Below are positions 2,915 to 27,150 of a stretch of DNA of 32,000 nucleotides, one piece after another. The position numbers and the translations under genes were made by a program. The stretch lies in the NCBI RefSeq assembly GCF_000829235.1, contig NZ_AP012549.1, positions 720,001 to 752,000 on the forward strand, written 5' to 3'. Each line of letters starts with the position of its first letter. Positions within the stretch are counted from its first letter, which is position 1. Under the pieces are notes generated by a model. That model saw only the letters and a program-made list of their open reading frames with translations, was not told the DNA's origin and did not search any database. The stretch is from a cyanobacterium endosymbiont of Epithemia turgida isolate EtSB Lake Yunoko (GTDB taxonomy: Bacteria > Cyanobacteriota > Cyanobacteriia > Cyanobacteriales > Microcystaceae).

Positions 2915-2946
2915 TCTCTGCTTGATACTTAAGTATCAAGCAGAGA
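2915..2946. repeat. 32-bp perfect palindrome (tctctgcttgatactt|aagtatcaagcagaga)
   Basis: Read directly; every position pairs. It lies about 50 nt downstream of the tnpB remnant stop, where IS605-family right-end hairpins sit. Confidence 0.9.
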
Positions 2947-3279
2947 ATAAAGGGAATATTTACATTGAAATTGACAAACTCTTCTATAGTTATTAAGACT
3001 TATAATGACTGCATGAATTAAGTAAGCAGATTGCCTCTTGATTTCAGTAATTGGATTTGCGAATGTTACAAAACCAATTATAGTTGTGACATCAACACCT
3101 CAATAAACGCAGAAAATTAAGTCTTAAGAACATGTAAGATACCTATGTATTAAGATTTATTACCTCTTAGACACAACGCGCAATGAAGTTGAAAGTCTCA
3201 AATATAATGCTTTGAACTGGGTGGGTAATTCATCTCACAATATACAATGTAAGGGAATCTTTTTAAGAGAAAAATAATT

Positions 3280-3948
3280 ATGTCAGAAATTGACATTGCC
3301 AGTTATATCGATAATAGCTTACTCAGTCCTACAGCAATTGCCCAAGAGGTAGAACAGTATTGTCAACAGGCTAATCAATTTGGCTTTCCCACTGTCTGTG
3401 TATATCCCTCCATGGTATCTCAAGCAACCGAATTACTTCAAAATAAGCAAACCCAAGTTTGTACAGTGGTTGGCTTTCCTACAGGAGCAACCACCTCAGC
3501 CGTCAAACTTTATGAAGCCAAAGAAGCAGTAGAAAATGGAGCAACGGAACTCGCTGTAGTAATCAACTTGGGATGGTTAAAAATTGGACTTTATGACAAA
3601 ATTTATCAAGAAATTGCCGAAATTTGTTCAGAAACGAGACAAACAGTTAAAGCTATTCTCGAAACTAATTTATTGACGGATACAGAAAAGCGACTCGCTG
3701 CCGAAATTTGTATGGATGGAGGGGCAACTTATTTAGAGACTAGTACTGGATGGTTTGGAGGGGCAACAGTCGCTGATGTAAGTTATCTTAATCAACTAAC
3801 TAAAGGACGAGTGGGTATTAAAGCTTCTGGGGGTATTCGGACTCTAGAACAAGCTTTAGCCCTAATCGAAGCAGGGGCAACTCGGTTGGGAACTTCTCAT
3901 GGGGTTAACTTAGTGAAACAACAACGTGATCCAGTACGAAACATTTAG
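3280..3948 (+). CDS. deoC: Deoxyribose-phosphate aldolase
   Basis: 222 aa. It has a DeoC-type TIM-barrel sequence with 'VKAILET' and the Schiff-base lysine block '[10 protein letters not shown]', plus 'GATRLGTS' at the C-terminus. Confidence 0.93.
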
Positions 3949-3975
3949 GGGATTTTGACAAAATATAATGAGCTA

Positions 3976-4821
3976 ATGAGTCGAATTTATAAAACCACAG
4001 GGATTATCTTAAAAAGAACACCTTTCGGGGAAGCTGATCGTTTAGTCAAAATTCTTTCACCAGAATTCGGTTTAATTCGAGCGATGGTCCCAGGGGCGAG
4101 GAAATATACATCAAAACTAAGCGGACGTAGCGAGTTATTTGTGGTTAATGATTTATTAATAGTCAAGGGGCGATCACTTGATCAAATTATCCAAGCCGAC
4201 ATCTTAAAATCTTACCCAAGATTGAGTAAAAATTTAGGAAAATTGGCTGCTAGTCAGTATTTAGCTGAATTGGTATTGTCCATAGCCTTAGAGCAACAAC
4301 CTCAATGGGAACTTTATGAACTCCTCAACGAACATTTACATCGCCTCGAAGAAATATCATCTGATCAAAGTTTACATAGTCATTTAGCCCAAGGGGTGTT
4401 ACATATATTGGTACTTGCGGGAATTAGTCCTCAAGTTCACACTTGTTGTTTGACTGGTGAAACGTTATCAGCCAATTTTAGTAATCCTCATTGGCGAGTA
4501 GGATTAAGTTTTAAAGAAGGAGGTTTGATAAAATTAGCAATTACAGAATCTTCCGTATCAACTAAACAAGAATACTCTAAAATCATCCGAACTTTAATTG
4601 ATCAACAACTAAATGCCGTAGAATTTAGTCTTTTGCAACAATTATTCCATCCTTATCTCCCGCAACTACGAAAAATCTTACCTCTAGAGTATCTCAATGA
4701 TTTCCTACCCTTAGCTTGGGTTCACATCGAACATATGCTACGTAATTATGCTCAATACCACTTAGGGAAATCTTTTCGGTCAGCCGATCTCATCAGTACT
4801 TTATCTCGGTTAGAGTTTTAA
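3976..4821 (+). CDS. recO: DNA repair protein RecO
   Basis: '[43 protein letters not shown]' is a typical RecO OB-fold N-terminus. The ORF track opens at TTG 3955, but ATG 3976 gives the canonical start. Confidence 0.85.
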
Positions 4822-4948
4822 GGTTTAATAGAACTGTATGATTAACTACAAAATTAATTGCTATCTTCGCAATTAAGTCAAGTAAAACCCCTATTTTTAA
4901 GCCTTAACTTAAGTTATTTTTTCTCCCCAAGATTCCTCACCTAACTCT

Positions 4949-6346
4949 ATGGATCGCCAATCTACCCCCTCTAAGCCACCAATGAGTCAAGGATTTATCC
5001 CTATTCTGCAGAACCCGCGTTTTTTAACGCTTTGGGTTGGACAAATTTTCTCTCAATTGGCTGATAAAGTTTATCTGGTCTTAATGATTGCCTTAATTGC
5101 TGGTCACTTTCAAGGAAACAATCAACCTATTAGTGGTTGGGTATCAGCGATTATGATTGCTTTTACTATTCCGGCGGTTTTGTTCGGTTCCTTTGCTGGG
5201 GTTTATATAGATCGATGGTCAAAAAAAGGGGTGTTAGTTATCTCTAATTTTGTACGAGGGGCATTAGTTTTCGTTATTGCTCCCCTAATCTGGTTATCCC
5301 AAGATAAAACCTTAGCATTACCTGTCTATTGGCTTCCTGTCTGGTTAAGACAGTGGCAATTACAAGTTCAAGATCACTTTTTTATTCCTTTGGGATTTTT
5401 ATTCATACTAATATTAACCTTTATAGATTCAACTATTACCCAGTTTTTTGCCCCAGCAGAACAAGTTACTATTCCTTTGATTGTTGAACGCCGTCATCTG
5501 CTTTCGGCTAATTCTCTCTTTACTACTACCATGATGGCTACGACCATTATCGGGTTTGCAATTGGAGATCCTTTACTAGAATTAGCTGCAACGTTAGCTA
5601 AATTTGTGGGATTATCTTGGGAACTCGGTAAATCTTTAGTTGTTGCCTTATCTTATCTGTTAGCGGGTTTCATTTTAATTTTTTTAAGGACAGGAGAAAA
5701 AAAAGAACACTACGAAAAAGAACGCTCCCATATATTTAAAGATATTCGCGATGGTCTTCATTATCTCAACAATAATCATCGAGTTCGCAATGCTTTAATT
5801 CAACTGGTAATTATTTTTTGTATTTTTGCAGCCTTGTCGGTATTGGCTGTCAGGATGGCTGAAACTATTCCAGGGTTAAAAGCTGAACAATTCGGCTTTT
5901 TATTGGCTTTTGGAGGTTTAGGAATGGCTTTTGGAGCAGGTATTTTAGGCAACTGGGGTCAACAGTTTAGCAAAAATCGATTAGGATTGTGGGGATCGTT
6001 GGGAATGGCAGTTTCCTTGGTGGGGTTATCCTTGTCTATAGACAATCTATGGCTAACTCTGTTGATGACCACATTTTTAGGATTATTTGCAGCTTTTGTC
6101 GGAGTTCCAATGCAAACTATGATTCAATCAGAAACACCTGTTGACATGAGGGGTAAGGTGTTTGGTTTGCAAAATAATGCGGTTAATATTGCTTTGTCTT
6201 TACCTTTAGCTTTAGCTGGTATTGCAGAAACTTTAGTGGGGTTGAAACCTGTTTTACTTGCTTTAGCTGGATTAGCAGTCGCAGGGGGAATTCTCACAGG
6301 GAATATAGGAAAAAATAGACCTGGCAATAAAATACCAGAATCATGA
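4949..6346 (+). CDS. Major facilitator superfamily transporter, substrate unknown
   Basis: 465 aa with about 12 hydrophobic segments and an MFS-like loop 'AGVYIDRWSKKG' after TM2. The substrate cannot be inferred. Confidence 0.85.
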   Translation: MDRQSTPSKPPMSQGFIPILQNPRFLTLWVGQIFSQLADKVYLVLMIALIAGHFQGNNQPISGWVSAIMIAFTIPAVLFGSFAGVYIDRWSKKGVLVISNFVRGALVFVIAPLIWLSQDKTLALPVYWLPVWLRQWQLQVQDHFFIPLGFLFILILTFIDSTITQFFAPAEQVTIPLIVERRHLLSANSLFTTTMMATTIIGFAIGDPLLELAATLAKFVGLSWELGKSLVVALSYLLAGFILIFLRTGEKKEHYEKERSHIFKDIRDGLHYLNNNHRVRNALIQLVIIFCIFAALSVLAVRMAETIPGLKAEQFGFLLAFGGLGMAFGAGILGNWGQQFSKNRLGLWGSLGMAVSLVGLSLSIDNLWLTLLMTTFLGLFAAFVGVPMQTMIQSETPVDMRGKVFGLQNNAVNIALSLPLALAGIAETLVGLKPVLLALAGLAVAGGILTGNIGKNRPGNKIPES

Positions 6347-6584
6347 CTGATTTCAAAAAAAAATAATCATAACTTCTTTACAAGATTTCTCCTTTAGTCA
6401 CGGATTATCAGTAATCTTTTTTATATAACAAATTTACAAAATTTATTCTAAACCTAAAATATAAGTATACGATATATTCTTCCTGATCATGTATTGAGAC
6501 TGTTTAATATTTCTAGTTTTTTCCCTGTAAATAAATTTGAATTTATTTATCCTTGCTATTAATCATTTACCATGATTTTAGATA

Positions 6585-8090
6585 TATTCTTTGATTTGTT
6601 CTGGTAAAAAAACTTGATTCATCACTAGGAAAATTTAATTCAATCACAAAATCAAGAAATAAAAATAGACCCGAAAACATTCAAATATACAGCGGTACCT
6701 ACGTTTTCTTGAGCAGGTGACAAACTAAACACAGTGATAGCTACCTTTTTCTCTAGTTTAGGTTTGTCCCTAGATTAGCCTATTTTATTGCTTGTTGGGG
6801 GACTGCTTCGATGCGCTCTTGCCGTATTTCCGTCCCGTTTTGAGAGGATAATAGGTTCTATCGCCCCATCTAATTCAGGAATAGCTATTTGTAAGGCTAC
6901 TTGGACAGGATGTAATCCTAGAACAATTTCTTTCCATTCTTGGTTAGGTTGAAATACAAGAGACAACGCACACATATAAGGACGGTTGAGGCGTTTTAAT
7001 GATTCGATTGCTTTTGGATAGTCTTGACGAGCTGGACCCATAACTAATACAAAACCTGTCAAAGAAACCATTGCCTCGACAATAGTAATTGTCTCTCCTC
7101 CTTTACTTTAATCTAAGAAATAAGCATCCATCGGGTTATAAAAGTCTAATCCTCCTGCCAATATAAAAAGCACCCTCGCTCCCATAGCTTCTAATTCCTG
7201 CACTGTAGCCACATAGTAAGCAAAGCATCATCCTCAATCGGATAAGTCTGTTGTAGAATCAATCTAATACAGGGGTCTGAAGGGTCTTTTTTTGAGACTA
7301 TCAAAAATAAATATCGATTCGACTATTGAACCATCTTAAATAAGAAGGAACATCCTTAAACATTTCCCTCGATAAAGGATGCCAAATTCCTATGTCAAGA
7401 TAGACTACTAGATCCTGATAGTTAACAGTTTTATCTTCGAGGAGATCTGGATAGGAATATTTGTGGAACAACATTACCAGAAAATTCTCTAAATTTTACG
7501 AAGATCTTCCCAACCAATATTGGAAACTCAACATAAGACTGCGAGCATTTTGAGCTTTTTCAACTGGAAAATACTTCAAAATTTGAGGCAAAGTCCGCAA
7601 CAAGTTTAACATAGTATCTTGAAACCATGCGCTGGAATTTTCCTTTCGTTTCCGCATAAATTGGGCGATTGCATTTTTATACTGTCTCAACTGAGCCATA
7701 GAAAACCTATCTAATTTGTTTAAGTGCATTATCTCGAGCATTGAGGGGAAGACCACCACGGCATCTCAATTATCCCGATGGGGTTCCATCTCGTCTAGGA
7801 CTTTATCCGCTAAATATTCAATAAAAATTAAAGAGGCAATAAATTAAGTTGGTACATACCACGTTATTCATAAATTATGTATATTTTTCAGTATTTATTA
7901 GTTATTTGACTATATAACCACTAATTTTTATGGCTAATTTAGGGTTATTTTTATTGATTGCTTCAACAACTACCGAAAGGGAACTTTGATATTGTGGATC
8001 TAAAACGATATAGACCACCTTTAGCAAAGAACGACCATTAATTGCCTCTGGAACGATATGCCGAACGGTGGACTTCACACGAGTAAACAT
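6585..8090 (-). pseudogene. chlH: Mg-protoporphyrin IX chelatase H subunit pseudogene (about the first 500 codons, shattered; the rest deleted)
   Basis: Colinear ChlH-like pieces are separated by stops and frameshifts. They include 'MFTRVKSTVRHIVPEAINGR..KVVYIVL..QYQS' followed by TAA, 'FIASLIFIEYLADKV', 'VVFPSMLEIMHLNKLDRFSMAQL..AIAQFMRKRKENS', 'LMLSFQYWLG', 'GIWHPLS', 'LEAMGARV', '[35 protein letters not shown]', '[27 protein letters not shown]' and 'KKVAITVFS...[15 protein letters not shown]'. Confidence 0.87.
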
Positions 8091-8452
8091 CTATTACAGT
8101 ACTCCTTAATTTTATGATGGTCTAAACGCTGTAAAGCATTAATTCAGAGTTGGCAAAAAATTTTATAGGACTCTATATGTGTTTCTACCCAAAATAGCTC
8201 TCACATGAGCATTTTATCGAGTATTTGACATAATTTCTAAAGAAGTATTCCATGATTCTCTACAAGAATTGACATACTGGCGATAGTAGTTTCTTTTTTT
8301 CTTGTTTATAACAACTAATTTTATATTCATTGATGAATTTATTATTGACTAAATATACTTACATTTTAGATGCTATCATTGCTATGATAATGCTCACAAA
8401 ATGAATTTAATGAGTGAGATTGGAGATTAATCATTAAAAATAACAAGACAAA

Positions 8453-8554
8453 AATTTTAGTTTGTATTTTTTTATCAAAAGATGATGTTTAATAAAAAAA
8501 TACAAACTAAAATTCGATAGCCATAAGCTATAGTATTTTTTTTATTAAACATCA
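8453..8554. repeat. Two interleaved perfect inverted repeats (23-bp and 18-bp stems)
   Basis: 8453-8475 pairs perfectly with 8492-8514. 8483-8500 pairs perfectly with 8537-8554. The two stems share the A-run at 8492-8500. Confidence 0.85.
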
Positions 8555-8900
8555 CTATCAATTAAAACAACAGTTAAACTTTATTTATTATTTTGTTTAT
8601 AAAACTAAAATATAAAAACTCCTAAGTGTCTATCATAAAGTTAATTTAGCTAGTGAAAAAGTTAAAACTACAGCAAACACTCACACAATGTTTTTAATAT
8701 TTGTGTTCACAAGTCTGCGATGTGCCCAGTCTAACTTGAAAACCACAATTTGTCTTGATTTGGATTCGAGATAAATTTTGACCTACAAGTGATCACTAAT
8801 AGCCATAGCATTAAGGTTAAGACGATTCACAAACAATGATAAGATTCAATTTAGTATAAACTTCACTGTCTATTTACACACTTAAAGGAAAAGCCACTTC

Positions 8901-10199
8901 ATGATTCACGATATCTTCATGCCTGCACTCAGTTCTACCATGACCGAGGGAAAGATCGTCTCTTGGTTGAAGTCTCCAGGGGATAAAGTAAAAAAAGGAG
9001 AAACTGTTGTTGTAGTTGAATCAGATAAAGCGGATATGGATGTGGAATCTTTCTATGAGGGTTATCTAGCAACCATTTTGGTAGAGGCTGGAAAAGAAGC
9101 TCTCGTAGGAACAGCAATTGCCCTCGTGGCAGAGACCAAAGCAGAAATTGCTCAAGCACAGCAAAAAGCTCTCTCAAGCCCAGAGCAAACTCTTCAAACT
9201 CCCTCAACTGTAGCCTCAATCTCCACTCTTGAACTAGCTACGACACCAACAACAACTTTTTCGACGAATGCTTCCAAAACCGATGAAAGTCGTGGCACTA
9301 ATGGCCGTATAATTGCCTCACCACGAGCGAAGAAACTAGCTAAACAATTAGGTATTGAGCTCACAACTATTCAGGGCAGTGGACCTTATGGACGCATTGT
9401 TGCAGAAGATGTAGAACGCACGACGGGGAAACCCCAAACTGCAACTATTACCCCGACTTCATCTTCTGCATCTCAATCGACTACCACTCCGAATACGTCG
9501 CCGACTCCTGTAACTGTTATTTTAGAAGAAACTATTCCCCTTACTACCTTACAAAAAGCAGTAGTACAAAATATGGTAGCGACAGTACAAGTTCCTACCT
9601 ATCATGTAGCTTATACAATAACTACCGATAGTTTAGATAAACTCTATAAGATAATTAAATCTAAAGGGGTAACTATGACGGCTTTATTAGCAAAAGCAGT
9701 GGCTGTTACCCTTCACAAACATCCTTTACTTAACGCTAGTTACAGCAACCAAGGAGGAATCCACTATAATAGGTCAGTTAACGTTGCTTTAGCAGTAGCA
9801 ATGCCCGATGGAGGACTAATTACTCCTGTTCTACAGAATGCTGATAAAATCGATATTTATTCTCTATCTCGTACTTGGAAAGATTTAGTCGAACGCGCTA
9901 GAAAGAAACAATTACAACCCCAAGAATATCAAAACGGAACTATTACCATCTCAAATTTAGGAATGTTTGGGGTAGACCATTTCGATGCAATTTTACCTCC
10001 AGGACAAGGAGCAATTTTAGCTATTGGTAAATCTCGTCTCCAAGTAGTAGCTACTCCAGAAGGATTGACTGGAGTAAAAAGTCAAATGACAGTCAATATC
10101 ACTTGCGATCATAGGGTAATTTATGGGGCCCATGCAGCTGCGTTTTTGCAAGATTTAGCTCAATTAATCGAAACTGATGTCAAATTACTAACCATGTGA
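8901..10199 (+). CDS. pdhC: Dihydrolipoamide acetyltransferase (E2 of the pyruvate dehydrogenase complex)
   Basis: The lipoyl domain is 'VVVVESDKADMDVESF'. The E3-binding domain is 'ASPRAKKLAKQLGIELTTIQGSGPYGRIVAEDVE'. T/S/P-rich linkers are present, and the catalytic motif is 'DHRVIYGAHAA'. Confidence 0.93.
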   Translation: MIHDIFMPALSSTMTEGKIVSWLKSPGDKVKKGETVVVVESDKADMDVESFYEGYLATILVEAGKEALVGTAIALVAETKAEIAQAQQKALSSPEQTLQTPSTVASISTLELATTPTTTFSTNASKTDESRGTNGRIIASPRAKKLAKQLGIELTTIQGSGPYGRIVAEDVERTTGKPQTATITPTSSSASQSTTTPNTSPTPVTVILEETIPLTTLQKAVVQNMVATVQVPTYHVAYTITTDSLDKLYKIIKSKGVTMTALLAKAVAVTLHKHPLLNASYSNQGGIHYNRSVNVALAVAMPDGGLITPVLQNADKIDIYSLSRTWKDLVERARKKQLQPQEYQNGTITISNLGMFGVDHFDAILPPGQGAILAIGKSRLQVVATPEGLTGVKSQMTVNITCDHRVIYGAHAAAFLQDLAQLIETDVKLLTM

Positions 10200-11582
10200 T
10201 AGGTAATTAATGAAGGGAAATTATACTTCTCGACTTCAGTCTCTTTACAAACCTGTCAAGCTAAATCTATCAAGGTATTAATAATAGCTATGATTGCCAC
10301 CGCACTTCTCAGAATATTGTTTAGTGAAAGTTAAAATTACCTATGCCGTTTATGTTTTCTTTTTTTAAGGATGGGCAATGGTTAAGGTGTTGCAATAAAC
10401 TGGATTGACAAACGTTGATTACAGATCAGGCGCGACGTCGACTTACACTATGAGTAAATTATCTATACAACTGCCCTAGCTGCTTTTAATGATATGTCTT
10501 TTTATCAGAACAAATTAACCTAAAGTAGTCACAATTAGCCGTTTGACGGATCAATCGACGAATAATTTTATACTCAACTTAAAAAAAATGACAGTCTTTA
10601 GACCAAAAACCTGACGATTAAATATCGTTTCATACCGAGCTTAATATATCTAAATTTTTAGCTTTAAAAGAGGTTTTGATTGACTGAGTACTAAAGACAG
10701 GTATAACTCTGATATTCTTAGGAAAAATTTAATCATATTACGAAATAAAAGTAATCAAATTGCCAAAGAAAAACTTTATCTTTCTTGCGTAAAATTCTAG
10801 TAAATCCGCACCAAAAACACCAACGATAAAAATTACTATGGTTAAGATAAATTTTTAAAATAGTTGTCTAAAAATCACTGCACGACCTTCTTTGACAAGA
10901 TAATCTTATCTAAGATATTAACAATAACCGTGTTTTACCACTAATTCGAATATGGTGAAGGGTTTCAAAGCGCGCGTCTAGCTTTTTCCGGAAAATTCGG
11001 GATAACAAATAATAAATAGTATTACCGATACTAAATGCTAAAAGTTGCCGTCAGGGGAATCGATCACTCGATGAAGTACTCCGATTATTAGGTCTCCATA
11101 AATTGATAACAGTCCGGTCCGGAAAAAGATTATATTTGGTTAAAGTTCTGCTTAAATCCAGTATTTTCTCATAATTGGTGAGGTTTTAAAAATTAGAAAT
11201 GATTTTAAAAACCAAGAGAAAAAATCTACTAAGTTGACTACGGGAGTAATAACATCGAGTAGAAGTTCTAGATGATTGAGTGCCTAAGCTAGATAGGAAA
11301 AAACTTAGCTTCCTACACTGAAGATACAAGTTATTAGTCCCACCAGGAAATACTTAAGATAGTGTTATTGTATCGTGATTTTGCCTAGAAAATTATCAAC
11401 ACACATCATAATTTTATTTTTTAGTATTTTTTAAAAAAATTACTCCCCTTATTTATTCTGAATATATTGGTTTATTTTTGAACAATTTTAAGTTAGTTTA
11501 ATACATATATAAGCAATTTTTTATATGCAATATTTCACATAATTTATCACTATGTAATTCCTATATTTTTAGTTTTTATCTC

Positions 11583-11978
11583 TCATGCTTTCGGGGACCA
11601 ATCTTTTTGTGTTGGATAACTTTGCCACCTCTGCCAAGCCGCTTTGAAGCCAATAGCAACTCGACGGGTTCCCTGTTGAACAAGACTTACTTGTCTTTTG
11701 GTCTTACTTAAAGTAAGGTCGACTCTTTTTACTACATCTGAAGCACTTTTAACTCCATGATTTAGCTCATCTGTTAATTCAGTAATTTCTAATCCTGTCA
11801 GACGAATAGATTCCAGCGTAGGGGGAAGTTCTCGATTGAGAGTATCACAAAGCTTTTCTACACTACGAGCCGCTCTTATTAACTCTGTACAAGTCGGTAT
11901 AACCATCATTAAGACTGTCATCAAACTGACAGTCACCAAAAGTGAAGAAAGTCCAAGCCATAAAAGAGGATCGCTCAC
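11583..11978 (-). CDS. DUF948-like small membrane protein (GTG start)
   Basis: It has an N-terminal TM segment 'LLWLGLSSLLVTVSLMTVLMMVI' followed by a coiled region 'ELIRAARSVEKLCDTLNRELPPTLESIRLTG', typical of DUF948. Its start overlaps the upstream stop as GTGA. Confidence 0.65.
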   Translation of the reverse strand: MSDPLLWLGLSSLLVTVSLMTVLMMVIPTCTELIRAARSVEKLCDTLNRELPPTLESIRLTGLEITELTDELNHGVKSASDVVKRVDLTLSKTKRQVSLVQQGTRRVAIGFKAAWQRWQSYPTQKDWSPKA

Positions 11979-12355
11979 GCTTGTTTACCTGAAAAGGGTT
12001 TAGCAGAGGAAGATGCAAAATCCATAGTCATCTGTGACGAAGAGGTTTCAGAGTTCTCAAAATTTCCTTGACTGGCTTCGAGTCCAGCCGCTATGGTGTC
12101 TTTGAGTCGTGTCAGAGTGTTATTCCAGCTCTGAAGTGCTGATTCTGATAGACGATAAGCTTGTAACTGCACTGTAGTTGATAGATCTTCAGCTATCTCT
12201 GGCAAAGCATCTGCTGATTTTTTGAGAATACGTCTTGTTTCCTTTCCCGAGTGTGGAGCTATCAAAATGCCGGTTACTGTCCCCAGCACTCCACCGATGA
12301 CCATTCCGGCAGCCAAAATACTACTCTTGTTATTGTTAGACATTAATATTTGCAA
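11975..12355 (-). CDS. YtxH-domain protein
   Basis: The glycine-zipper TM and YtxH signature are 'AAGMVIGGVLGTVTGILIAPHSGKETRRILKKSADAL'. The true start may be the second ATG (MSNNNK, 12343). Confidence 0.7.
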   Translation of the reverse strand: MQILMSNNNKSSILAAGMVIGGVLGTVTGILIAPHSGKETRRILKKSADALPEIAEDLSTTVQLQAYRLSESALQSWNNTLTRLKDTIAAGLEASQGNFENSETSSSQMTMDFASSSAKPFSGKQA

Positions 12356-12459
12356 AATTTTAGTAATTGTAATTTTATTCTAAAGTCAAACCTTAGGCTT
12401 TGATAAGCAATGTCATAATATTCCTAAGTAATGGTTAGCATCTGGAGATTAGATCTTAA

Positions 12460-14010
12460 ATGGCCCGTTTAGCACTACTGAGCGTATCGGACAAAACCGG
12501 AATTATCGATCTAGCTCAACAATTGGTTGATAAATTTGACTTTGAGTTAATCAGTAGTGGAGGAACAGCAGATCTTCTACAAGAGGCACGACTTCCAGTC
12601 ACTAAAGTGAGTGACTATACCGGATCACCAGAAATCTTAGGAGGACGAGTTAAAACCTTGCATCCTCGCATTCATGGGGGTATTTTGGGGCGACGGGATT
12701 TGTCACAAGACGACCAAGAGATGGCGTCCAATCAAATCCGTCCGATTGATCTAGTGGTAGTCAATCTCTACCCTTTTGAACAAACCATTGTTCAGCCTCA
12801 TTTTACAATATCTGAAGCTATTGAGAAAATCGATATTGGTGGACCAACCTTGTTGAGGGCAGCATCCAAAAATTTTGCTCATGTTACAGTCTTATCTAAT
12901 CCTCAATATTATGATAGTTATCTACAGGAGTTAGATATAAACAATGGGGAAGTTTCCCTAGCGTTCCGTAAAAAAATGGCGAGGGAAGCCTTTGCTTTAA
13001 CTCATAGTTATGATGGAGCGATCACTAATTATTTTATGACTCTTACTTTAGAAACAGAGTCTTCTTTACCAAGTCATTTAACTCTCTCAGGTACTCAATT
13101 TCAATCTCTTCGTTATGGAGAAAATCCTCATCAAAATGCAGTTTGGTATCAAACTGGAACTCAACCATCAGGGTGGGCTGCCGCGACTAAATTACAGGGG
13201 AAAGAACTCAGTTATAATAACTTAGTAGATTTAGAAGCGGCGCGGCGTATTATTGCTGAATTTAACTCCGAAGAACCAGCTGTTGCTATTCTTAAACATA
13301 CTAATCCCTGTGGTATGGCGATAGGAAAGACTTTGGCTAATGCTTATGAGAATGCATTTAATGCAGATTTAATTTCGGCTTTTGGGGGTATTGTAGCGGT
13401 CAATCAACCCTTAGATAAGGAGACAGCAAGCCAATTAACAAAAACCTTTTTAGAATGTGTGGTCGCCCCGGGATGCGATGAAGAAGCTAAAAGGGTTTTA
13501 GCTGCTAAATCTAAAATTCGTGTTTTATTATTACCAAACTTAATGAGTGGGCCAAAACAGACAGTTAAAGTGATTGCTGGAGGATTATTAGTGCAAGCAT
13601 CCGACGATCAGATAGATACTTCTGAGAGTTGGGAAATTGCTACAGAAAAGCAACCGACTTCCGAACAATTAGCGGAATTATTGTTTGCTTGGAAAGTTAC
13701 GAAATACGTAAAATCAAATGCTATTGTAGTGACGAAAAATCGTACAACTCTGGGAATTGGTGCTGGACAAATGAATCGGATTGGTGCCGTCAGAATTGCC
13801 CTGGAAAAAGCTGAAAATAAAGCTAAAGGGGGATTCCTTGCTAGTGATGGATTTTTTCCCTTTGATGATTCAGTGCGTACGGCAGCAGCAAAGGGAATTG
13901 TGGCTATTGTACAACCTGGAGGGTCACTACGGGATAAAGATTCTATTGCGGCGGCTAATGAATTAGGGTTAGTGATGGTCTTAACCAGAAGACGGCATTT
14001 TCTACATTAA
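12460..14010 (+). CDS. purH: Bifunctional AICAR formyltransferase / IMP cyclohydrolase
   Basis: 516 aa. The N-terminus is MGS-like, 'ALLSVSDKTGIIDLAQ...SSGGTA'. It also has 'VKTLHPRIHGGIL', 'LRYGENPHQ' and 'KHTNPCG', with C-terminal 'RHFLH'. Confidence 0.97.
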   Translation: MARLALLSVSDKTGIIDLAQQLVDKFDFELISSGGTADLLQEARLPVTKVSDYTGSPEILGGRVKTLHPRIHGGILGRRDLSQDDQEMASNQIRPIDLVVVNLYPFEQTIVQPHFTISEAIEKIDIGGPTLLRAASKNFAHVTVLSNPQYYDSYLQELDINNGEVSLAFRKKMAREAFALTHSYDGAITNYFMTLTLETESSLPSHLTLSGTQFQSLRYGENPHQNAVWYQTGTQPSGWAAATKLQGKELSYNNLVDLEAARRIIAEFNSEEPAVAILKHTNPCGMAIGKTLANAYENAFNADLISAFGGIVAVNQPLDKETASQLTKTFLECVVAPGCDEEAKRVLAAKSKIRVLLLPNLMSGPKQTVKVIAGGLLVQASDDQIDTSESWEIATEKQPTSEQLAELLFAWKVTKYVKSNAIVVTKNRTTLGIGAGQMNRIGAVRIALEKAENKAKGGFLASDGFFPFDDSVRTAAAKGIVAIVQPGGSLRDKDSIAAANELGLVMVLTRRRHFLH

Positions 14011-14146
14011 TTTTTGCAAAAAATATTTTAGATTGATAAATGAGGTGAGGAGAGATCTTTTCTAGGAATATCAATGGAGAAATGGAAAAAGATTGAGCTG
14101 TCAGTCACTGAGTGATTTCGCCCGACTAAACAAAAATGGAATGGGA

Positions 14147-16402
14147 CTACCGAGAAACTAATCCTTTCTTCATATAATTTCTCCACAAGGCCGCTGCTTG
14201 ACTACTACTGCCTCTGGTTGGGGAGTTATCGTCATTACCCAACCATACCCCTGTTACTAAATTCTGACTGGGAACATAGCCCACAAACCAAAGATCCACG
14301 GCTTTATTGGTAGTTCCTGTTTTCCCTGCTTCTCCCAGTCCGATGCTAGCTACTTTCCCAGTTCCCCGTTGTACGACCCCCCGTAATAAATCAGTCATGG
14401 TTTGGGCTAATTGGTAGGAAATAACCCTTCTTCTATTAGTTTGATCTTGATTAAGATTGTAAATGACTCGACATGTCTGCCAATTATTTATATCTAAACA
14501 ATCTCCCCCGTCAAGGATACGCTGAATTGCATGAGGACGGTTCCAAATTCCTTGATTAGCAAAAATAGCATAAGCCCCAGCCATTTCCAAAACAGTGACT
14601 TCACTTTGTCCTAAAATTAATCCTGGTGATCGTGTTAATGCTGATACTACTCCCAACCGTTGCGCCATTTCAATCACTCGATTTAACCCTATATCTTGGG
14701 CAACTCTGAGGGCGATTGCATTTTCTGACTGTGCTATTCCTCGATACATATCTACATTTCCATCACTACGTTCACAGGGTTTGTATCGTTGTCCCATCCA
14801 GCGTAGTCCGTCACAGGAATAAACTTTTCGAGGAGAAATTCCTTGTTCAATAGCCGCCGCATAACTGAATACCTTAAAAATCGATCCAGGTTGACGTTTA
14901 GCTTGAGTGACGCGGTTAAATTGACTTTGTTTATAGTCTACCCCTCCCACTAAAGCTAAAATTTCTCCAGTACGGGTATCTAAGGTGACAATTGCCCCTT
15001 GGGAGAACTTATATGTTGATCCGGCATTTTTAACGTGATTTCGTAGCTCTTTTTCAGCTTTAGACTGTAAGTGAAGATCTAATCCTGTTTCTACAATAAA
15101 ATTACCTTCTTTCGCTAATTCGTTCCCTAAGAGAGTTCTTAGTTCTTTAAAAACGTGACTATAAAGATATGGAGCAATCACATTTGACAAAGTTTTTCTA
15201 GCTTTAGGACTAATTTCTATGCGTGATCTTCGCTCACGATCAGCTTGTTCGGGTTTAATCATCTCTAAATCTGCCATACGAGTGATGACACGGTTTCGGA
15301 GTTGAACAGAAGTATCATAGTCCTGAACAGGGTTATAGAGATTTGGGGCGGGTAACATTGCCACCAGAGTGGCCGCTTCGGAGATTGTTAAATCTCTGGC
15401 TGATTTTTCAAAATAGAATTGGGCTGCGTCTTCAAACCCGTAAAGGCTACCCCCTAGATACACTTGATTTAGATAAGTTTTTAAAATTTGATTTTTGCTA
15501 TAAACAGCTTCTAATTTTAAAGCAACAACCATTTCTCGTAATTTACGACCGGCTGTATCTTCCCATCCCACTTCAGTAAAGAGACTGCGGGCTAATTGTT
15601 GGGTCAAGGTACTCGCTCCTTGACGAATGCCTTGATCTTTTGAATTGATGACTAACGCCCTAACAATTCCGTAGGGATCGACTCCAAAATGCCAGTAGAA
15701 GCGAGTATCTTCTGAGGCAATAAGGGCTTTAGATAAATAAGGAGAAAAGTCTTGTAAACGGTTAATTTCTCGGTGAGTACTTTGGGTAATGGGGTTTAGG
15801 GGGATTTTGTTATTGCTTGCATAAACAACTACTGGACCACTAACTCCTGATGGGAGGGGCGTTACATCATATTTACGGCTTTCCCAGATGATAACGACAC
15901 TGATCAGAGCAAATAGTCCAATGGTTCCATGAAGGGTATAGGAAATCAGTCTACGCCAAACAGGAGGAGGACTATGATAAGCCAGTTTAGCAGTTTTAGC
16001 TAATTCTGGGGGTCCAAGGATAATGACATCTCCATGACGTAAGGAAAGATTTTTAATACGTTGTCTGTTGTGGTAAATACCGTTGGTAGATTGTTCGTCT
16101 TCGAGGACGAAATATTGGGGATCGTTTTTGTCACGGCGGAGAGAACAGTGAACTTGACTAACAAAACTATTAGTAATGAGAATGTCACAGAATCTCGAAC
16201 TCCGTCCCAAAATATAGCGATCACCAATTAATGAGTAGACTCGAGGTTTATCTCCTTCTTTATCTTGTATGTGTAATTCAGGAACTTTTGCCCCTTTTTT
16301 GAGTGTTTCAGGACTTAGTCTTCCTTGTCCAAGTTTTTGTACTACTTGGGTAACCAGTTGACTCAAGGGATGTTTGGGAAGAGATGGCGGTTTTGAGAAC
16401 AT
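14147..16402 (-). CDS. Class A penicillin-binding protein (GT51 transglycosylase + transpeptidase) with an N-terminal FHA domain
   Basis: The FHA core is at residues ~55-130, with 'LGRS', 'SQVH' and 'TNGI'. A TM segment is at ~152-173. GT51 motifs are 'EDTRFYWHFGVD', 'GASTLTQQ' and 'RKLREMVVALKLE'. Transpeptidase motifs are 'SIFK' (SxxK), 'SEN' (SxN) and 'KTGTT'. Confidence 0.93.
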   Translation of the reverse strand: MFSKPPSLPKHPLSQLVTQVVQKLGQGRLSPETLKKGAKVPELHIQDKEGDKPRVYSLIGDRYILGRSSRFCDILITNSFVSQVHCSLRRDKNDPQYFVLEDEQSTNGIYHNRQRIKNLSLRHGDVIILGPPELAKTAKLAYHSPPPVWRRLISYTLHGTIGLFALISVVIIWESRKYDVTPLPSGVSGPVVVYASNNKIPLNPITQSTHREINRLQDFSPYLSKALIASEDTRFYWHFGVDPYGIVRALVINSKDQGIRQGASTLTQQLARSLFTEVGWEDTAGRKLREMVVALKLEAVYSKNQILKTYLNQVYLGGSLYGFEDAAQFYFEKSARDLTISEAATLVAMLPAPNLYNPVQDYDTSVQLRNRVITRMADLEMIKPEQADRERRSRIEISPKARKTLSNVIAPYLYSHVFKELRTLLGNELAKEGNFIVETGLDLHLQSKAEKELRNHVKNAGSTYKFSQGAIVTLDTRTGEILALVGGVDYKQSQFNRVTQAKRQPGSIFKVFSYAAAIEQGISPRKVYSCDGLRWMGQRYKPCERSDGNVDMYRGIAQSENAIALRVAQDIGLNRVIEMAQRLGVVSALTRSPGLILGQSEVTVLEMAGAYAIFANQGIWNRPHAIQRILDGGDCLDINNWQTCRVIYNLNQDQTNRRRVISYQLAQTMTDLLRGVVQRGTGKVASIGLGEAGKTGTTNKAVDLWFVGYVPSQNLVTGVWLGNDDNSPTRGSSSQAAALWRNYMKKGLVSR

Positions 16403-18899
16403 AGCTTACTATGTTTGGGAATCGATTAGCTAAATTTCTTAAAATTTTCTGTGATATCGTTAAGAACGTGTCACTAATTTCTTTAACACTACAACCTATT
16501 ATTGTAACCGCTAAGTGGATAGATATCACTAAAGTTAAATCTGTTTCACTAAGTACTCCATTTTTTACACTTTCTAAATCTCCCCTTGTCAAGAGAAACT
16601 TTTTGTATCTTTTCTTCCTTGCAAAGAGAAAGTTTGCCACATTTTTTTATTATTATACATATTATTTAAAAATATATATGCTATTTTTAATATCTAAGTA
16701 AAAATACGAAAAAGTTGACTTTTATATAGAATAATCACTATCAGTAATTTATTCTGAGACAATGGACCTGATAAGATCATCCTAAACTTTTAGAGTTTTA
16801 AAAATTGTAAATAAAATATTATCAATATTTTATTTACTTAATATATTTAGAGGTTTAGAGTAGAAAGAATGATAATAGACAATTGTTTTTGGTATTTGCT
16901 CAAAAATAAAGAGATTAATTCACCAAGAAGACACGCTGATCTCTTATTGATAAGCAGTTTAGGCAGCTTTTGAGTACTTTCTCGAATGAGATTATCAGTG
17001 ACATCATAGCTAAATAGTGCGTTAATCAAGATTAATACTATAATTCTTTGGATAGAACTGCATCGATTGTTTTGAGGTTTATCATTTTTGACAGAACATA
17101 CGTTGGTATTTTCCGTAAGGTGATGCAATCCAATATATGTCTAAATTTATGGTACTGAGGATATTTTTGAGATATACAAAAGCTATTTATATTCGTTGTT
17201 TTACTACAAAAATTTTATGAGATTTAAGTCTTTGAATAATTTAAAATTGTAATGCAATGTTATTGACTTTAATCTTTTTGAGAAATTTATCAATAAAAAT
17301 TGATACATACTTTTTTGAATGAATTTTAAATCAATAGTATTTATACTAATTTACATAGCTATAAAGCCTGTAAATTATGCAAATAAGTAAATAAATGATA
17401 ATAGTAATAGAGATTCTATCTCTACTACTATCTTAACTTTTTAAGTCGCTCGAATCATTCTGGCTAATCCTTTCGGATAAACTCCCCATGAAGAGAATTT
17501 TTTTCTTAGAATTGCTAGTAACTAGCTTATTCATTGGTTTAATTTTATTATTTGCTTCTCCAGTCAAGTCCCAAATTATAGAATTGGGTAATGATATTCC
17601 TATAAATTTTTCTCATGAACGCCGTCGCCGTAGCAGAACTAAAGTAAGAATGTATCCCGAAAATGGTTGACTCAATGTAGGAATAGAAGAGGAAAGAAGA
17701 CCTCAAACGAGAATCAGGGTATTCGATAAAAATAATTTTTCTTTTATTGGTGTTCGTGAGGAGAGGCTCGTTTCTCAGGAAAGAGTTAGATTTTCTCTTC
17801 CTTTCTAACAAATCAGTATGGGAAATCTCTGAATTTTAGTAGCAAAATATGCAGTTAGGATTTTCCTGTATTTGTCGTTAACCAGTCTTATTTATTTAAG
17901 AGACCAAGCAAGTTGCACAAAATATACATTTAGTAAGCTCTAAAAAGTCGCAGACCACTTATTTTGAACTAAGAAAATGTGGTGAGCGGGCTCCGAACTA
18001 ATGAAATCCATTGAGATCATTGGAATACAAAACAAGTTCTGTTTTGTCGGGGTTTTAGCCATTGCAAAGATGAAGACTCCCATATGAATGTCTAAATGCG
18101 TAGACATGTCGTCGGTAAACAGTTGCTTCGTTAAACCTAAACCTAGTTAAAAATTTTCTGAACTTTGTTTAACTGAATCACTGTTTACTTAGTTTAGTTA
18201 CATTTCTTCAATAATTTTGGTGGGGGATAATAACCTTCAGTCTCTATAATTGTAATAAAAGGTTTCTTGAAGATAGTCTCCCCCAAAAAGGGTATAAACT
18301 TCTCCAAATAGAGAAAAATAATTTCACCTAGCAAAAGTTGGTAACGTTTTTTTCACACATCTTTTTTGTAATTGCCTTAATTTTACCACTTACTTGATTG
18401 AGGCAAAAAGGGAGATAATTTGCCTTCTAAACTACTAGTGTAGGATTTACAATGATAAAATATATGCATTTTCATCATTGTAAATGAATTTCGACATTAA
18501 AATTTATAATTTTGGAAAGCTTCCATTAATTGATCATCAGAAGGGTCTGCTACTAAATCATCAATTTGCTCTCCTAAAGAGTAAATAATAAAACTTACCA
18601 ACTGATCTTAATTAATTAAGACATAAATTTCTTATAACCAAGAATCTGAATTAATTTATATTGCTTTTTGAGCTTTTTGACGAGATTGATGCATAGTATC
18701 GAACTGTAGCCTAGTTATGGGTGGCAAACTACCTTATTTAAAACAAGAAGTCTAACTCATTAGATATGATTAAACGTGTATTTTCATAAAAAATTAAAAG
18801 TAAAGGACTAAGATTTAATTTATTAGACAAGCTCTCAATAAACCTGCTACGAACTTACCATTACTTTTGTTGGCAGACTTATCCTAAAATAACCAATGA

Positions 18900-20674: not shown

Positions 20675-20680
20675 GGATGC

Positions 20681-20962
20681 TTACCTCATTGAGGATTGAA
20701 TCACGTTAACAGCTGTTACCTCAAAACAATAATTTTCAATGACTGGGTTAGCTAATAATTGATCACACATTTGTTCAAGTTGTTCTTTTGCATGGATTTC
20801 GCAATTTGCTGTTAAAGTAAGTTCAATGTATTTCCCAATTCTTACTTTTTCAACCCCTTGATAGCCTAACTGTTTTAATCCGGATTCAACTGCAGTCCCA
20901 GCTGGATCTAACACTGATGGTCTAAGGGTAACGTAAATAAGACACTGATATTGTTGAGACAT
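20681..20962 (-). CDS. purS: Phosphoribosylformylglycinamidine synthase subunit PurS
   Basis: 93 aa. 'VTLRPSVLDPAGTAVESGLKQLGY' is a typical PurS block. The gene ends 6 nt upstream of purQ. Confidence 0.9.
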   Translation of the reverse strand: MSQQYQCLIYVTLRPSVLDPAGTAVESGLKQLGYQGVEKVRIGKYIELTLTANCEIHAKEQLEQMCDQLLANPVIENYCFEVTAVNVIQSSMR

Positions 20963-21451
20963 AGAATGTTAGTTATTGCTAAGATAATCATAAAAGTTAA
21001 ATACATTTGTTCTTAAGCGTAAATCCTCCACTTACTCAAATCTTTAAAATTGTGCTATTTCAACTCTAGCCTATGATTCATATTTAACACTCAACAGTCG
21101 AGATTAACCCTGGGGACCGTCCACACAATTTATTCTGCTTTAAAGACTGACTTTAGAATTTAAAGAAACGATGTAAGCGCAACCCTCAGTCGATAAAGAG
21201 TCCTTCTATAGTTTAATCCTCCATGGCATGCTCAATACTGTCTTACCTGTGTCAAGTTCAGTATATCTGTTTCCATTAACTAAGTGTCTTACTACATGAC
21301 CGAAAGGAATAATTAAAACATTCCCATTATTTTTGAGCCATCATACCTTAGAATTTTTTGGATAGTTTTACCAATATCAACTGATTGAGCCAAGAAACTA
21401 TTTGTTTTCACCGACTTAGTTTTTAGTCAATCAATTTAACTTTTGACTAGT

Positions 21452-23087: not shown

Positions 23088-23775
23088 ATGTTTCGAAAGA
23101 CAGCTAGGCTCTCTAAATTCTCTCGTCAACTATTAGAGGAGTTGTTTGCTTTACCCTCCAATAAAGATACTTTAGGCGGGACGGCTTATTTTATTCTAGA
23201 AAAAACTAGCAATATCTTGATGGATTATCCTGAATGAAATCAACAAGTTGAAGACTTTCTTCAACAACACGGGGGAGTGCGTTGTTTATTTATCACTCAT
23301 CGTAGTGCTGTAAGTAAATTGGTAAAATCCCTACAAAAAACTCTAAAGTGCTCAGTTGTGATCCAAGTAAGAACAGGAGGACTATCTGCTTCCAGAGACA
23401 GCCGTAACCTCTTTTAAAAAAGAAGCCTGTCTTAGTCCAAATATTAAAGGAAGGAGTTTGGATTCCTGTTAATTCCCCAGGTTTTTCTTATCTTTATCGG
23501 AGCTTCCATGGAGGAATTCTTTTTACTGAACTGCACTTTTGTGTGATCTTTTAGGGACTCTAAGACCTTGACGGTTAGCTAAAACTTTCCATTGGTTACG
23601 TCAGCTAAAGAGTGTTCAGATGTTACGCAATCACTTCAACTCCAGCTCCCTTAATTAGATTTTCCCAGGAGCCAATATAGAATTCTTACTAGACAAAGGA
23701 CTGATTGACAGAGCTTATGAGCAATTATCTGTTTTAAATTTAGATAATTTTTGTAAAACTCCCATCAGACAATAA
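23088..23775 (+). pseudogene. Metallo-beta-lactamase-fold hydrolase pseudogene
   Basis: From ATG 23088 it reads '...GGTAYFILEKTSNILMDYPE', then TGA (23235-23237) at a position where I recall homologues having Trp. It continues 'NQQVEDFLQQHGGVRCLFITHRS...VVIQ', and after frameshifts 'IPVNSPGFSYLY...GGILFT'. I count at least three further stops or frameshifts before the terminal TAA at 23773-23775. Confidence 0.7.
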
Positions 23776-24780
23776 TTTTATTTATGTTTCACTAGTTCTT
23801 GGATTCTTATAACTCTATCCTCTTTTTTAAAAAAAATTAACATTTTTTAACATCAGATGATATCCTCCTAGATTTAGGAGAATATCATCTGATGGCAGAA
23901 TTATTTAGATTGTTCGGCAACAAAACCAAGTCTGTTGATGAACTTAGTGTACAAGCATAGCAAAAAAAAAGAAATGTTTCATTCTCGAAGCTGATGATGC
24001 AAAAAGATGAGGAGATGCGGAGTTTATGAATAAATATCTTCAATAAAGACAAATATCACTGATAGCAATAGGTTTGTTCCTAAAAATCTACTTCACCCTA
24101 AACCTCAAATCAGTCCCGCAGCAGAATCAAACATTTAACGTTGTCGTAGCGAAAGTAACATAGATATGTCTCTTAAAATGGTTCGCAAGCTTAATAAGTA
24201 AGTTGATCTAGCTTGATAAACATTCTTTATAAGACACTAAATAACTAGGTGAAGTAGACATGATTAATTTATTTTTCCTATGTTTAAAACTAAGTTTTTT
24301 AAAATAAATACAAAATTTAGATAGTGTAATAATTTTAATTATTTTTAATATCTAAAATAAATTTATTTTTTATATCATTATGACATTTTATTGATTTTTT
24401 CAAGAAACTAATTAATTCAAAGTTAATTTGCCAATAGCATAGATAAGCTTTAAGTTTGCTCTGATTGTAGAGAGTAAGTTTGTATATATTCTCTAGTAAT
24501 TTATTGAAATATTTTTTTTTGATAGCTGATTTTGATCTGCTTTAAAATTATTTAATTCTCGACAAAACCTCTATATATACTTATGTTTATAGATATCTTA
24601 TTTATAATTTTTTATATTAAATATATTATTTACTTTGTATAAAAAAATATATTTAATGATAATACTTTTTATGTTTATTTCTTATTTATTTTATACTGAT
24701 TTTAAATGACTATTAACTTAGTTAATTATTTTATAAATGAACTAAAAATATTATATATTCTCTGGTTTAATTGGTTATGT

Positions 24781-24825
24781 TAAAAGTTATTAGTTTACTT
24801 TAATAAAGTAAACTAATAACTTTTA
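24781..24825. repeat. 45-bp perfect palindrome centred on 24803
   Basis: I checked taaaagttattagtttacttta-a-taaagtaaactaataactttta position by position. All 22 pairs around the central base match. Confidence 0.9.
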
Positions 24826-25956
24826 TGATTAATGTACAGGATACTTATTGAATTTAGTAATATTCTCTTATTCCTACAAAATTTTGTTTTTGATGTACTT
24901 ATTTTTTAGCTTGAATCACCTAGAATACAGTTAAAATAAAAAAATAATAGTTTAATCATTTTTTATTTCAACTGTTTTCTTATATTGTAAATAGGTTTAA
25001 ATGATAATATTCAATACTAAATACATATAGATCATGAATACATTATTTAATGATATTATTTAAAATAACAATGATTATTATAGTCGCCAACTATTTGCAC
25101 AATTTATTGTACAAATCAGGTAAAATAATTCTTTTTTTATTAAAATTAGTTCTATAGTTATGGACTTTATTGGAAATAAAAAAACTTAATTTCATAAAAA
25201 TTTATTTATTTACTGAGTTACTAAAATTTTTACTAATAATTTTATAAAATTGTTTTTTATTTAGAATAATAAATTCTAACTCATTAATTAAATCAATAAG
25301 TTTTTTATCTAAATCTTTGTTTATTTTTTAAATAAAATTTCATATGTGATATTATTCACATTTCGTTAATTTATCCTTTTTGTTATTTATTTTATTAAAG
25401 GTTAATTATGTTATTATTTTATAGCTTAATTATTATTTTTTTTGAAAAAGCTTTTAATATGTCAACAATCCATATAATCATTAGTAGCACATTACTGAAG
25501 CAATAACTAGCAAATAATTAACTATTAAGAAATAAACCCTGATCCAATCATCACCTTAAGATATCTAGTTTTACTGTTAAATGGAAATCCCCCTAATTGT
25601 AGCAAATCTACCTCATAAATAGTCCATAAATCAATGCTGTAACTATACAATAAATGAGTATTAATATAATCATCGATGATATTTATTTTTTATTTAGTTA
25701 CTTTGAAAACAGATTAGATTTCTTATAAACCTAAAAAAATGAAATTATAAATAATAAATTTAAAAGAAAGTTATATGCGAATTAATAAGTTTTTTAAAAA
25801 AATTCTTGTTTGAGTTGTATTAATTGAAAACATTCCATTAAAATACAATACCAGTAATAAAAAATTCAGAAATAATATTTTTTATCTATTAAAATAATCT
25901 ATGTATTAAGATATAATGCCATCGACAGTCATATAAACTCTGCTGATTTATACATT

Positions 25957-27150
25957 ATGAAAAATTTTTTTCAAATCAACCAAAACTTCACCTCTACAAC
26001 TAACACAGATGAATCGTTTTTTCAATTTCTTATTCCCGAAGGCCCATCTATTATTTTAGGTGAACAGTTCTCTAATACTTTGGTAATGCCCCTAGAACCT
26101 AAGTCCACTACTATGTTTGGTCCAAGAGGTGTTTGTTTAGTATCTGAAACTGGTCCGTTATGGATAGCAGACACAGGACACCATCGACTGTTGGGATGGA
26201 AAAATCGGCCTGAAACTGATGGCAAACCCGCAGACTTGGTCATCGGACAAACAGACTTTTATCAAGAAGGGCAAAACGCTAATGGAACTCCCCAAAGCAA
26301 TACTTTCAGTGTTCCTACTGGGATTTGCACTTGTGGAGAAGGATTAGCAGTGGCTGATGCCTGGAACCATCGGGTCTTAATTTGGAAGAAACTACCTCAA
26401 GATCATAATGTTCCTGCGGATATTGTGTTAGGACAAACAGACTTTCACCAAAATCAAGTTAATCGAGGAAAAATTAATACAGCTGCGGATAGGATGCATT
26501 GGCCTTATGGCGTTTTTTACCATCTAGGTTATTTTTTTGTCGCAGATACCGGAAATAGACGGGTTTTAGTGTGGAATCGACTTCCGGAAGTTAATGGACA
26601 ACCGGCAGATTTTGTTCTAGGACAGTCCCAGATGAATCTGCGGGACGAAAATGGAGGAGGACCTCCAACAGCTTCAAGTATGCGTTGGCCTCATACATTA
26701 GCAATTTGGCAAGATAACCTAGTTGTAACTGATGCGGGAAATAATCGTGTAATGATTTGGGATGGAATACCAACCGAAAATAATGTTCCTTGTAAATTAG
26801 TTTTAGGTCAATCAAATTTTGAAGATGTAGAACTTAATCAAGGGGTCTATTGTCCATCTTCTAGTAGTTTAAGTATGCCGTATGGCGTAGCTGCTTGTAA
26901 GCAATGGTTGATGGTGGCAGACACGTCTAATTCTCGTTTATTAGGGTGGAAAAATTCCCTAGAGATGGGTATCCCTTCCCAAGGATTAATGGGTCAACTT
27001 AACTTTCTTAGTAAAGGAGAGAATCGTTCTTACGGGAGGACTTATCGTAATAGTTTAAATTGGCCTTATGGAATCTCGGTTTGCGGTGATACGGCTATTA
27101 TTGCTGATTCTGGAAATAATCGAGTTTTACTATGGTCTATTAAAAGTTGA
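25957..27150 (+). CDS. NHL-repeat (six-bladed beta-propeller) protein with no obvious signal peptide
   Basis: Six repeats of an 'AD(T/S)GN.R(V/L)L.W' blade motif are present: ADTGHHRLLGW, ADAWNHRVLIW, ADTGNRRVLVW, TDAGNNRVMIW, ADTSNSRLLGW and ADSGNNRVLLW. Five of them are preceded by 'P.D.VLGQ.(D/N)F' linkers. Confidence 0.85.
   Translation: MKNFFQINQNFTSTTNTDESFFQFLIPEGPSIILGEQFSNTLVMPLEPKSTTMFGPRGVCLVSETGPLWIADTGHHRLLGWKNRPETDGKPADLVIGQTDFYQEGQNANGTPQSNTFSVPTGICTCGEGLAVADAWNHRVLIWKKLPQDHNVPADIVLGQTDFHQNQVNRGKINTAADRMHWPYGVFYHLGYFFVADTGNRRVLVWNRLPEVNGQPADFVLGQSQMNLRDENGGGPPTASSMRWPHTLAIWQDNLVVTDAGNNRVMIWDGIPTENNVPCKLVLGQSNFEDVELNQGVYCPSSSSLSMPYGVAACKQWLMVADTSNSRLLGWKNSLEMGIPSQGLMGQLNFLSKGENRSYGRTYRNSLNWPYGISVCGDTAIIADSGNNRVLLWSIKS

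Follow-up and report, generated by a model that had tools for sequence, protein, structure and literature searches.

Remnant of a decayed, half-deleted chlH gene in the genome of the non-photosynthetic spheroid body of the diatom Epithemia turgida

The subject of this work is a remnant of chlH, the gene for the H subunit of Mg-chelatase, which lies on the minus strand of a 32,000-nucleotide stretch of DNA (contig NZ_AP012549.1, positions 720,001 to 752,000 of the forward strand), here called the window and analyzed over its full length. The DNA belongs to an obligate N2-fixing cyanobacterial endosymbiont that has lost photosynthesis, the spheroid body or diazoplast of the diatom Epithemia turgida. 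The 2014 genome paper on this spheroid body (EtSB) reportedly announced as its headline that both photosynthesis and chlorophyll synthesis have been lost. EtSB was later described as lacking most photosystem I and II genes, with rbcL and rbcS present as pseudogenes and all ten of the ten chlorophyll-a pathway genes either pseudogenized or undetected (Nakayama and Inagaki, 2017, Sci Rep 7:13075; PMC5638926). In Table S3 of that study the EtSB chlH carries the entry “pseudogene; S, T, F”, the letters standing for stop, truncation, and frameshift; chlI is also entered as a pseudogene, chlD was not found, and the chlH of the R. gibberula symbiont is given as intact (RGRSB_0428). The genes on either side of the latter, RGRSB_0427 (MFS transporter) and RGRSB_0429 (dihydrolipoamide acyltransferase E2), have as their orthologs ETSB_0464 and ETSB_0466 respectively, with no EtSB coding counterpart to the chlH gene between them (PMC5638926). 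A paper of 2026 reported an almost complete chlorophyll pathway for the spheroid bodies RgSB, EcSB, and EpSB and placed EtSB and EaSB among three with little or none of it (PMC12903740), and in a preprint of the same year chlorophyll synthesis is missing from the spheroid-body core genome (Abresch et al., 2026).

The remnant in the window is the EtSB chlH pseudogene catalogued in 2017, as it occupies the same locus and the published description of stop, truncation and frameshift matches the lesions mapped here. The chlH pseudogene of the E. turgida symbiont is already known, and the suggestion of an initial annotation of this DNA, made from its letters alone, that the organism is a non-photosynthetic cyanobacterium is the genome authors' own conclusion and agrees with the published losses of photosystem, rbcL/rbcS, and chlorophyll-a genes. 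What is added to the published record is the position of each lesion to the base, a map of the deletion junction and a comparison that draws on genomes published since. UCYN-A, the nitroplast of Braarudosphaera, is comparable in being an N2-fixing relative of Crocosphaera with a reduced genome that is housed within a photosynthetic alga. Unlike UCYN-A, the spheroid bodies have, according to the literature, lost all photosystem genes, and the E. turgida symbiont is also without the chlorophyll pathway.

Positions 8090 to 6663 of the window, read on the minus strand, are colinear with ChlH residues 1–479 and represent ancestral codons 1–479 of approximately 1329. A conceptual product of 469 amino acids, stitched together from the fragments, matches chain residues 21–501 of Synechocystis ChlH (PDB 4zhj/6yt0) as one colinear stretch with an E-value of 4e-180. 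With the intact 1329-residue ChlH of the R. gibberula symbiont as tblastn query, residues 1–83, 83–260, 263–285, and 287–479 were placed on 8090–6661 in alternating frames, while no convincing match to residues 480–1329 was found in the 32-kb window, the only other matches to regions of ChlH having E-values of 3.7 and 3.9. Among the stop-free fragments, the Pfam domain DUF3479 (PF11965), the N-terminal domain of Mg-chelatase H, was detected on 7499–7759 (E-value 6.5e-19) and on 7905–8090 (E-value 8.9e-4), and the CobN-Mg_chel domain was matched at positions 134–218 of its 1090-position profile (E-value 6.3e-18). The latter domain is incomplete in the remnant, with only about profile positions 22–218 being present. 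The closest protein to the conceptual product in one homolog search, whose matches included only partial ChlH proteins and not the R. gibberula ortholog, was a Crocosphaera ChlH with 68% identity. In DNA alignments the remnant shares 82–85% identity with its syntenic counterparts in the symbionts of R. gibberula and R. gibba, the value against R. gibberula being approximately 84.5% over the retained part. No uninterrupted ChlH frame exists; because the sequence carries six in-frame stop codons and six frameshifting indel sites, it is a relic of the ChlH family and not a functional member. The initial annotation had described the locus as a shattered, 3′-truncated chlH pseudogene colinear with roughly the first 500 residues of the protein, and this description is in essence borne out, the similarity to ChlH being much greater than chance would produce.

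The lesions were positioned by alignment in the frame of the intact R. gibberula symbiont ortholog, and all coordinates are those of the window, with the lesions read on the minus strand. The start codon is present and the frame stays open through codon 62. Codon 63, which is GAA in the intact ortholog, is a TAA stop at 7904–7902; the same TAA is found in the R. gibba symbiont, and that of E. adnata has TGA. It is followed by a TAA at codon 72 (7877–7875), in common with the E. adnata symbiont, and by the first frameshift, a single inserted A after nucleotide 245 (7845), which the E. adnata and R. sterrenbergii symbionts also have. Two further stops follow, namely TTA to TGA at codon 108 (7768–7766), common to the E. 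adnata symbiont, and GAA to TAA at codon 198 (7498–7496), common to both the E. adnata and R. sterrenbergii symbionts. Insertions of four bases occur after nucleotide 776 (TATT, 7313–7310) and nucleotide 791 (CAAA, 7294–7291), both being found in the E. adnata symbiont. At nucleotides 845–855 (7237–7223) there is a cluster of indels of −3, +6, and −1 with a net effect of +2, of which the +6 is common to the E. adnata symbiont and the two small deletions are private to that of E. turgida. The stop at codon 324 (TAC to TAA, 7110–7108) is again shared with the E. adnata symbiont. The remaining lesions are a 17-bp deletion after nucleotide 1257 (between 6823 and 6822), a TGG to TAG stop at codon 439 (6782–6780) and a 1-bp deletion after nucleotide 1334 (between 6763 and 6762). 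As had been proposed from the letters alone, the first TAA directly follows codon 62, though at 7902–7904 rather than at 7899–7901; likewise, several frameshifts do lie between 7500 and 6650 as proposed, the insertion at 7845 being located upstream of that range.

Homology to chlH ends at position 6663, corresponding to ancestral nucleotide 1435. Here the coding sequence is joined to the downstream spacer across a short T-rich microhomology (6657–6669, minus strand), the homology to the R. sterrenbergii symbiont spacer beginning at 6669. Positions 6662–6347 are a retained part of the ancestral intergenic spacer between chlH and the MFS gene, as seen in alignments to the spacers of relatives: 6669–6472 is 70% identical to that of the R. 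sterrenbergii symbiont (E-value 2e-28), 6580–6347 is 80% identical to that of the R. gibba symbiont and 6567–6347 is 96% identical to that of the E. adnata symbiont. The 99 bp immediately past the breakpoint (6564–6662), for which neither R. gibba nor R. gibberula has a match, were considered as orphan filler DNA, an idea rejected as they are ancestral spacer conserved in R. sterrenbergii. As the sequence past the breakpoint is ancestral spacer, one clean deletion removed the 3′ part of the coding sequence together with spacer, its two sides overlapping at the junction. The loss amounts to 2555 bp of coding sequence (codons 480–1329) and several hundred bp of spacer, i.e., approximately 2.9–3.3 kb depending on the reference used. 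Slippage or illegitimate recombination could have caused this deletion, either of which would fit the microhomology at the junction. The initial annotation was right that the rest of the gene is deleted, with approximately 850 codons missing where it had estimated about 800, and that about 300 bp (314–316 bp of spacer) separate the remnant from the MFS stop at 6346. Its span of 6585–8090 holds for 6663–8090, the segment 6585–6662 being ancestral spacer.

The remnant sits between two intact genes on the plus strand, the MFS transporter gene (4949–6346, BAP17318.1) as its conserved downstream neighbor and the dihydrolipoamide acyltransferase E2 gene (8901–10199, BAP17319.1) as its conserved upstream neighbor, both identified by synteny and by exact matches to proteins of the E. 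turgida endosymbiont, which, with an exact match for PurH, place the window in the EtSB genome. The order recO-MFS-chlH-E2 is identical in the R. gibberula, R. gibba, and R. sterrenbergii symbionts, and in the E. adnata symbiont a truncated remnant fills the same slot between MFS and E2. The syntenic slot was taken from these four spheroid-body genomes, with the E. pelagica symbiont (uoEpiScrs1) being represented by a database protein alone. This protein is a full-length ChlH of 1329 residues, 91% identical to the R. gibberula symbiont ChlH over the C-terminal 850 residues of the latter. The R. gibberula symbiont has an intact 1329-codon open reading frame (ORF) at 10001–13990 of its locus (RGRSB_0428); at the same syntenic site the window copy is without codons 480–1329 and bears its stops and frameshifts. 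The chlH genes of the R. gibba, R. sterrenbergii, and E. adnata symbionts, which are related non-photosynthetic endosymbionts, are also dead and represent other stages of decay at this locus. That of R. gibba has kept its full length and bears a few frameshifts and two stops within the N-terminal 479 codons, that of R. sterrenbergii has several internal deletions leaving pieces 1–470, 681–816, 862–949, and 1081–1191, and that of E. adnata retains residues 1–335, compared to residues 1–479 in E. turgida.

Five of the six stops in the window fall in the part retained by the E. adnata symbiont, which has a stop at every one of these five codons and also carries the +1, both +4, and the +6 insertions. 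From these common lesions it follows that inactivation is older than the split of the two Epithemia species. The E. adnata symbiont (locus positions 3966–6000) additionally lacks 513 bp equivalent to window 7080–6568, comprising codons ∼334–479 and the first 95 bp of the spacer retained in E. turgida. This is a further or larger deletion, and the remnant is still shrinking. There is also a 9-bp deletion within the first 62 codons of the E. adnata remnant, as well as extra stops at codons 148 and 236.

The substitution pattern expected of coding DNA is lost in the E. turgida remnant, which is evidence of neutral drift. Its differences from the E. adnata remnant at codon positions 1, 2, and 3 are 0.024, 0.052, and 0.021, whereas the flanking genes of the same two symbionts have a third-position excess (0.004, 0.004, and 0.015 for MFS; 0.004, 0.011, and 0.028 for recO). 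With Crocosphaera as outgroup, private changes at the three positions number 17, 10, and 3 on the Epithemia stem and 29, 20, and 12 in R. sterrenbergii, compared to 5, 2, and 6 on the R. gibberula branch and 6, 5, and 10 on the R. gibba branch, which look far less relaxed. Differences between the chlH genes of the R. gibba and R. gibberula symbionts (0.056, 0.036, and 0.167) resemble those of housekeeping genes. Because of this coding-like pattern, chlH appears to have been held under purifying selection long after photosystem loss in some spheroid bodies, so that constraint on the gene would have outlasted the photosystems themselves. That the chlorophyll pathway persists in some spheroid bodies is a point made before in the literature (PMC5638926, PMC12903740).

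Without a root, four flanking genes place E. turgida with E. adnata and R. gibberula with R. sterrenbergii, and R. gibba apart from both pairs. The support for this amounts to 122 and 69 sites, the alternatives having 19 and 14, and the published clades agree. Identical lesions are nevertheless present in separated lineages, with the codon 63 TAA also occurring in R. gibba and the codon 198 TAA and the inserted A also in R. sterrenbergii. The sharing with R. gibba and that with R. sterrenbergii conflict with each other on any tree. Of eight substitutions common only to Epithemia and R. sterrenbergii, seven are GC to AT. An ancestral inactivation at codon 63 inherited in common with R. gibba was considered and is disfavored, as the R. 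gibba chlH looks constrained for most of its history, with few changes at positions 1 and 2 on its own branch, and as the two other lesions are common to R. sterrenbergii, which the flanking genes place with R. gibberula (69 sites versus 19 and 14). The shared lesions are best read as parallel, AT-biased hits in independently dying genes, a reading drawn from small counts of sites and for which recombination or lineage sorting would be possible alternatives. Such parallel hits would imply at least three independent inactivations of chlH among the spheroid bodies, again on small counts. The recurrence at these sites (codon 63, codon 198 and the +1 A after nucleotide 245) would be a new observation, as judged from the few positions concerned. 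It is conceivable, if doubtful, that chlH persisted under constraint and was then lost repeatedly, with a partial Mg-tetrapyrrole pathway, or ChlH itself, having a non-photosynthetic role in some diazoplasts that was later lost in Epithemia sensu stricto.

Other explanations for the state of the locus can be weighed against these data. Sequencing or assembly errors in what is really an intact gene would be a natural suspicion in an AT-rich genome with homopolymers, particularly as several of the indels lie within A/T runs. The Logan assembly of run SRR29904087, a public run from about 2024, is, however, independent, and its 68,980-bp contig is 100% identical to positions 2917–16346 of the window (13,430 bp) with the pseudogene included, so the lesions are not assembly artifacts. 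Most of them are found again in the E. adnata symbiont, whose genome was sequenced separately, and no such error would account for 850 codons that are simply gone with flanks joining cleanly to conserved spacer. This explanation is therefore given practically no weight. ChlH is reported to have regulatory roles in other cyanobacteria, and it could be asked if the remnant still functions, either as a short N-terminal ChlH-domain regulatory protein or through recoding or readthrough, given its open first 62 codons and the ORFs of 87 and 98 amino acids with recognizable domain fragments. Against this, none of these fragments is kept as an ORF in the E. adnata symbiont, with its 9-bp deletion, its stops at codons 148 and 236 and nothing past codon 335; the substitutions show no third-position excess, and the number of stops and frameshift sites far exceeds any known recoding. 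A functional remnant is accordingly considered very improbable.

An intact second chlH elsewhere in the genome could in principle sustain chlorophyll synthesis and reduce the window copy to a redundant duplicate. The window copy, however, is at the site orthologous and syntenic to that of the single chlH of the relatives, and the published whole-genome analysis, with its pseudogenized or undetected chlorophyll-a genes and mostly absent photosystem genes, speaks against it (PMC5638926). In addition, the 120 best relatives of the C-terminal 850 residues that the remnant lacks include no protein from the E. turgida symbiont, which is a weak negative, the part of this genome read here being the 32 kb of the window. 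A second copy is considered extremely unlikely. It is almost certain that the locus holds a decayed, half-deleted chlH in the non-photosynthetic, N2-fixing spheroid body of E. turgida. Nothing substantive was found that contradicts this, the absence of a second chlH relying on the published analysis together with the weak negative just mentioned.

The identity of the remnant, its lesions, its synteny, the genome it comes from and its neutral substitution pattern are shown by the data, and the course of events and the mechanism of the deletion are inferred from them. Once the photosystems had gone, Mg-chelatase subunit H would no longer have been needed. In the lineage of Epithemia sensu stricto the gene would then have drifted without constraint, gaining AT-biased nonsense mutations and small indels, probably before a single deletion of approximately 3 kb removed codons 480–1329 and part of the downstream spacer. 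What remains is non-functional DNA in its ancestral place between the MFS and E2 genes, in the process of being slowly erased.

The rest of the window is made up largely of housekeeping genes separated by long, ORF-poor and AT-rich gaps. Besides MFS and E2, it encodes atpA, atpG, deoC, recO, DUF948/YtxH genes, purH (12460–14010, an exact match to BAP17322.1), a PBP1A gene, cysK, purQ, purS, an M50 peptidase, an NHL-repeat protein, sodN with its maturation protease and an AbrB-family regulator. PurH and PBP1A come next in the R. gibberula and R. gibba loci also, these being the loci that reach that far. Scans of the window for tRNA genes and Rfam families found none. The small intact purS (20684–20968, minus strand; Pfam PurS, E-value 1.7e-31) adjoins purQ and falls under the ORF cut-off of 100 amino acids, so the apparent gap at 20675–21451 is not empty.

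When the stop-free fragments of the other ORF-poor gaps were searched with Pfam, PurS and one SdhB-like match were all that was found. The latter is a 66-residue stop-free fragment at 30621–30818 (minus strand), within the gap 29608–31514, which matches the Fer2_3 domain (E-value 7e-11). This 2Fe-2S domain is typical of the iron-sulfur subunit of succinate dehydrogenase/fumarate reductase, and there is no full-length ORF around the fragment, which probably marks another pseudogene of the window, resembling sdhB. Very AT-rich tracts at 24001–26000 (GC 0.19–0.21) and 27001–28000 (GC 0.24), compared to approximately 0.35–0.41 for genes, flank the intact NHL-repeat protein gene (25957–27150). These tracts may be genes decayed past recognition; Pfam gave no match for 23296–23487 and 28152–28322, the only two stop-free fragments searched here, both lying just outside the tracts. 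Between the PBP1A gene and cysK there is also a 2.5-kb region (16403–18899, GC ∼0.30–0.32) with only short ORFs that have no Pfam matches, and this is likely another eroded region.

The chlH remnant reveals nothing new about the biology of the organism. It is a textbook case of how a young obligate endosymbiont reduces its genome, with an indispensable gene of a photosynthesis pathway seen halfway from inactivation to erasure, and the relatives display every earlier and later stage of chlH decay. Its value is limited to that of a well-resolved case in which to study how, and how fast, genes decay.

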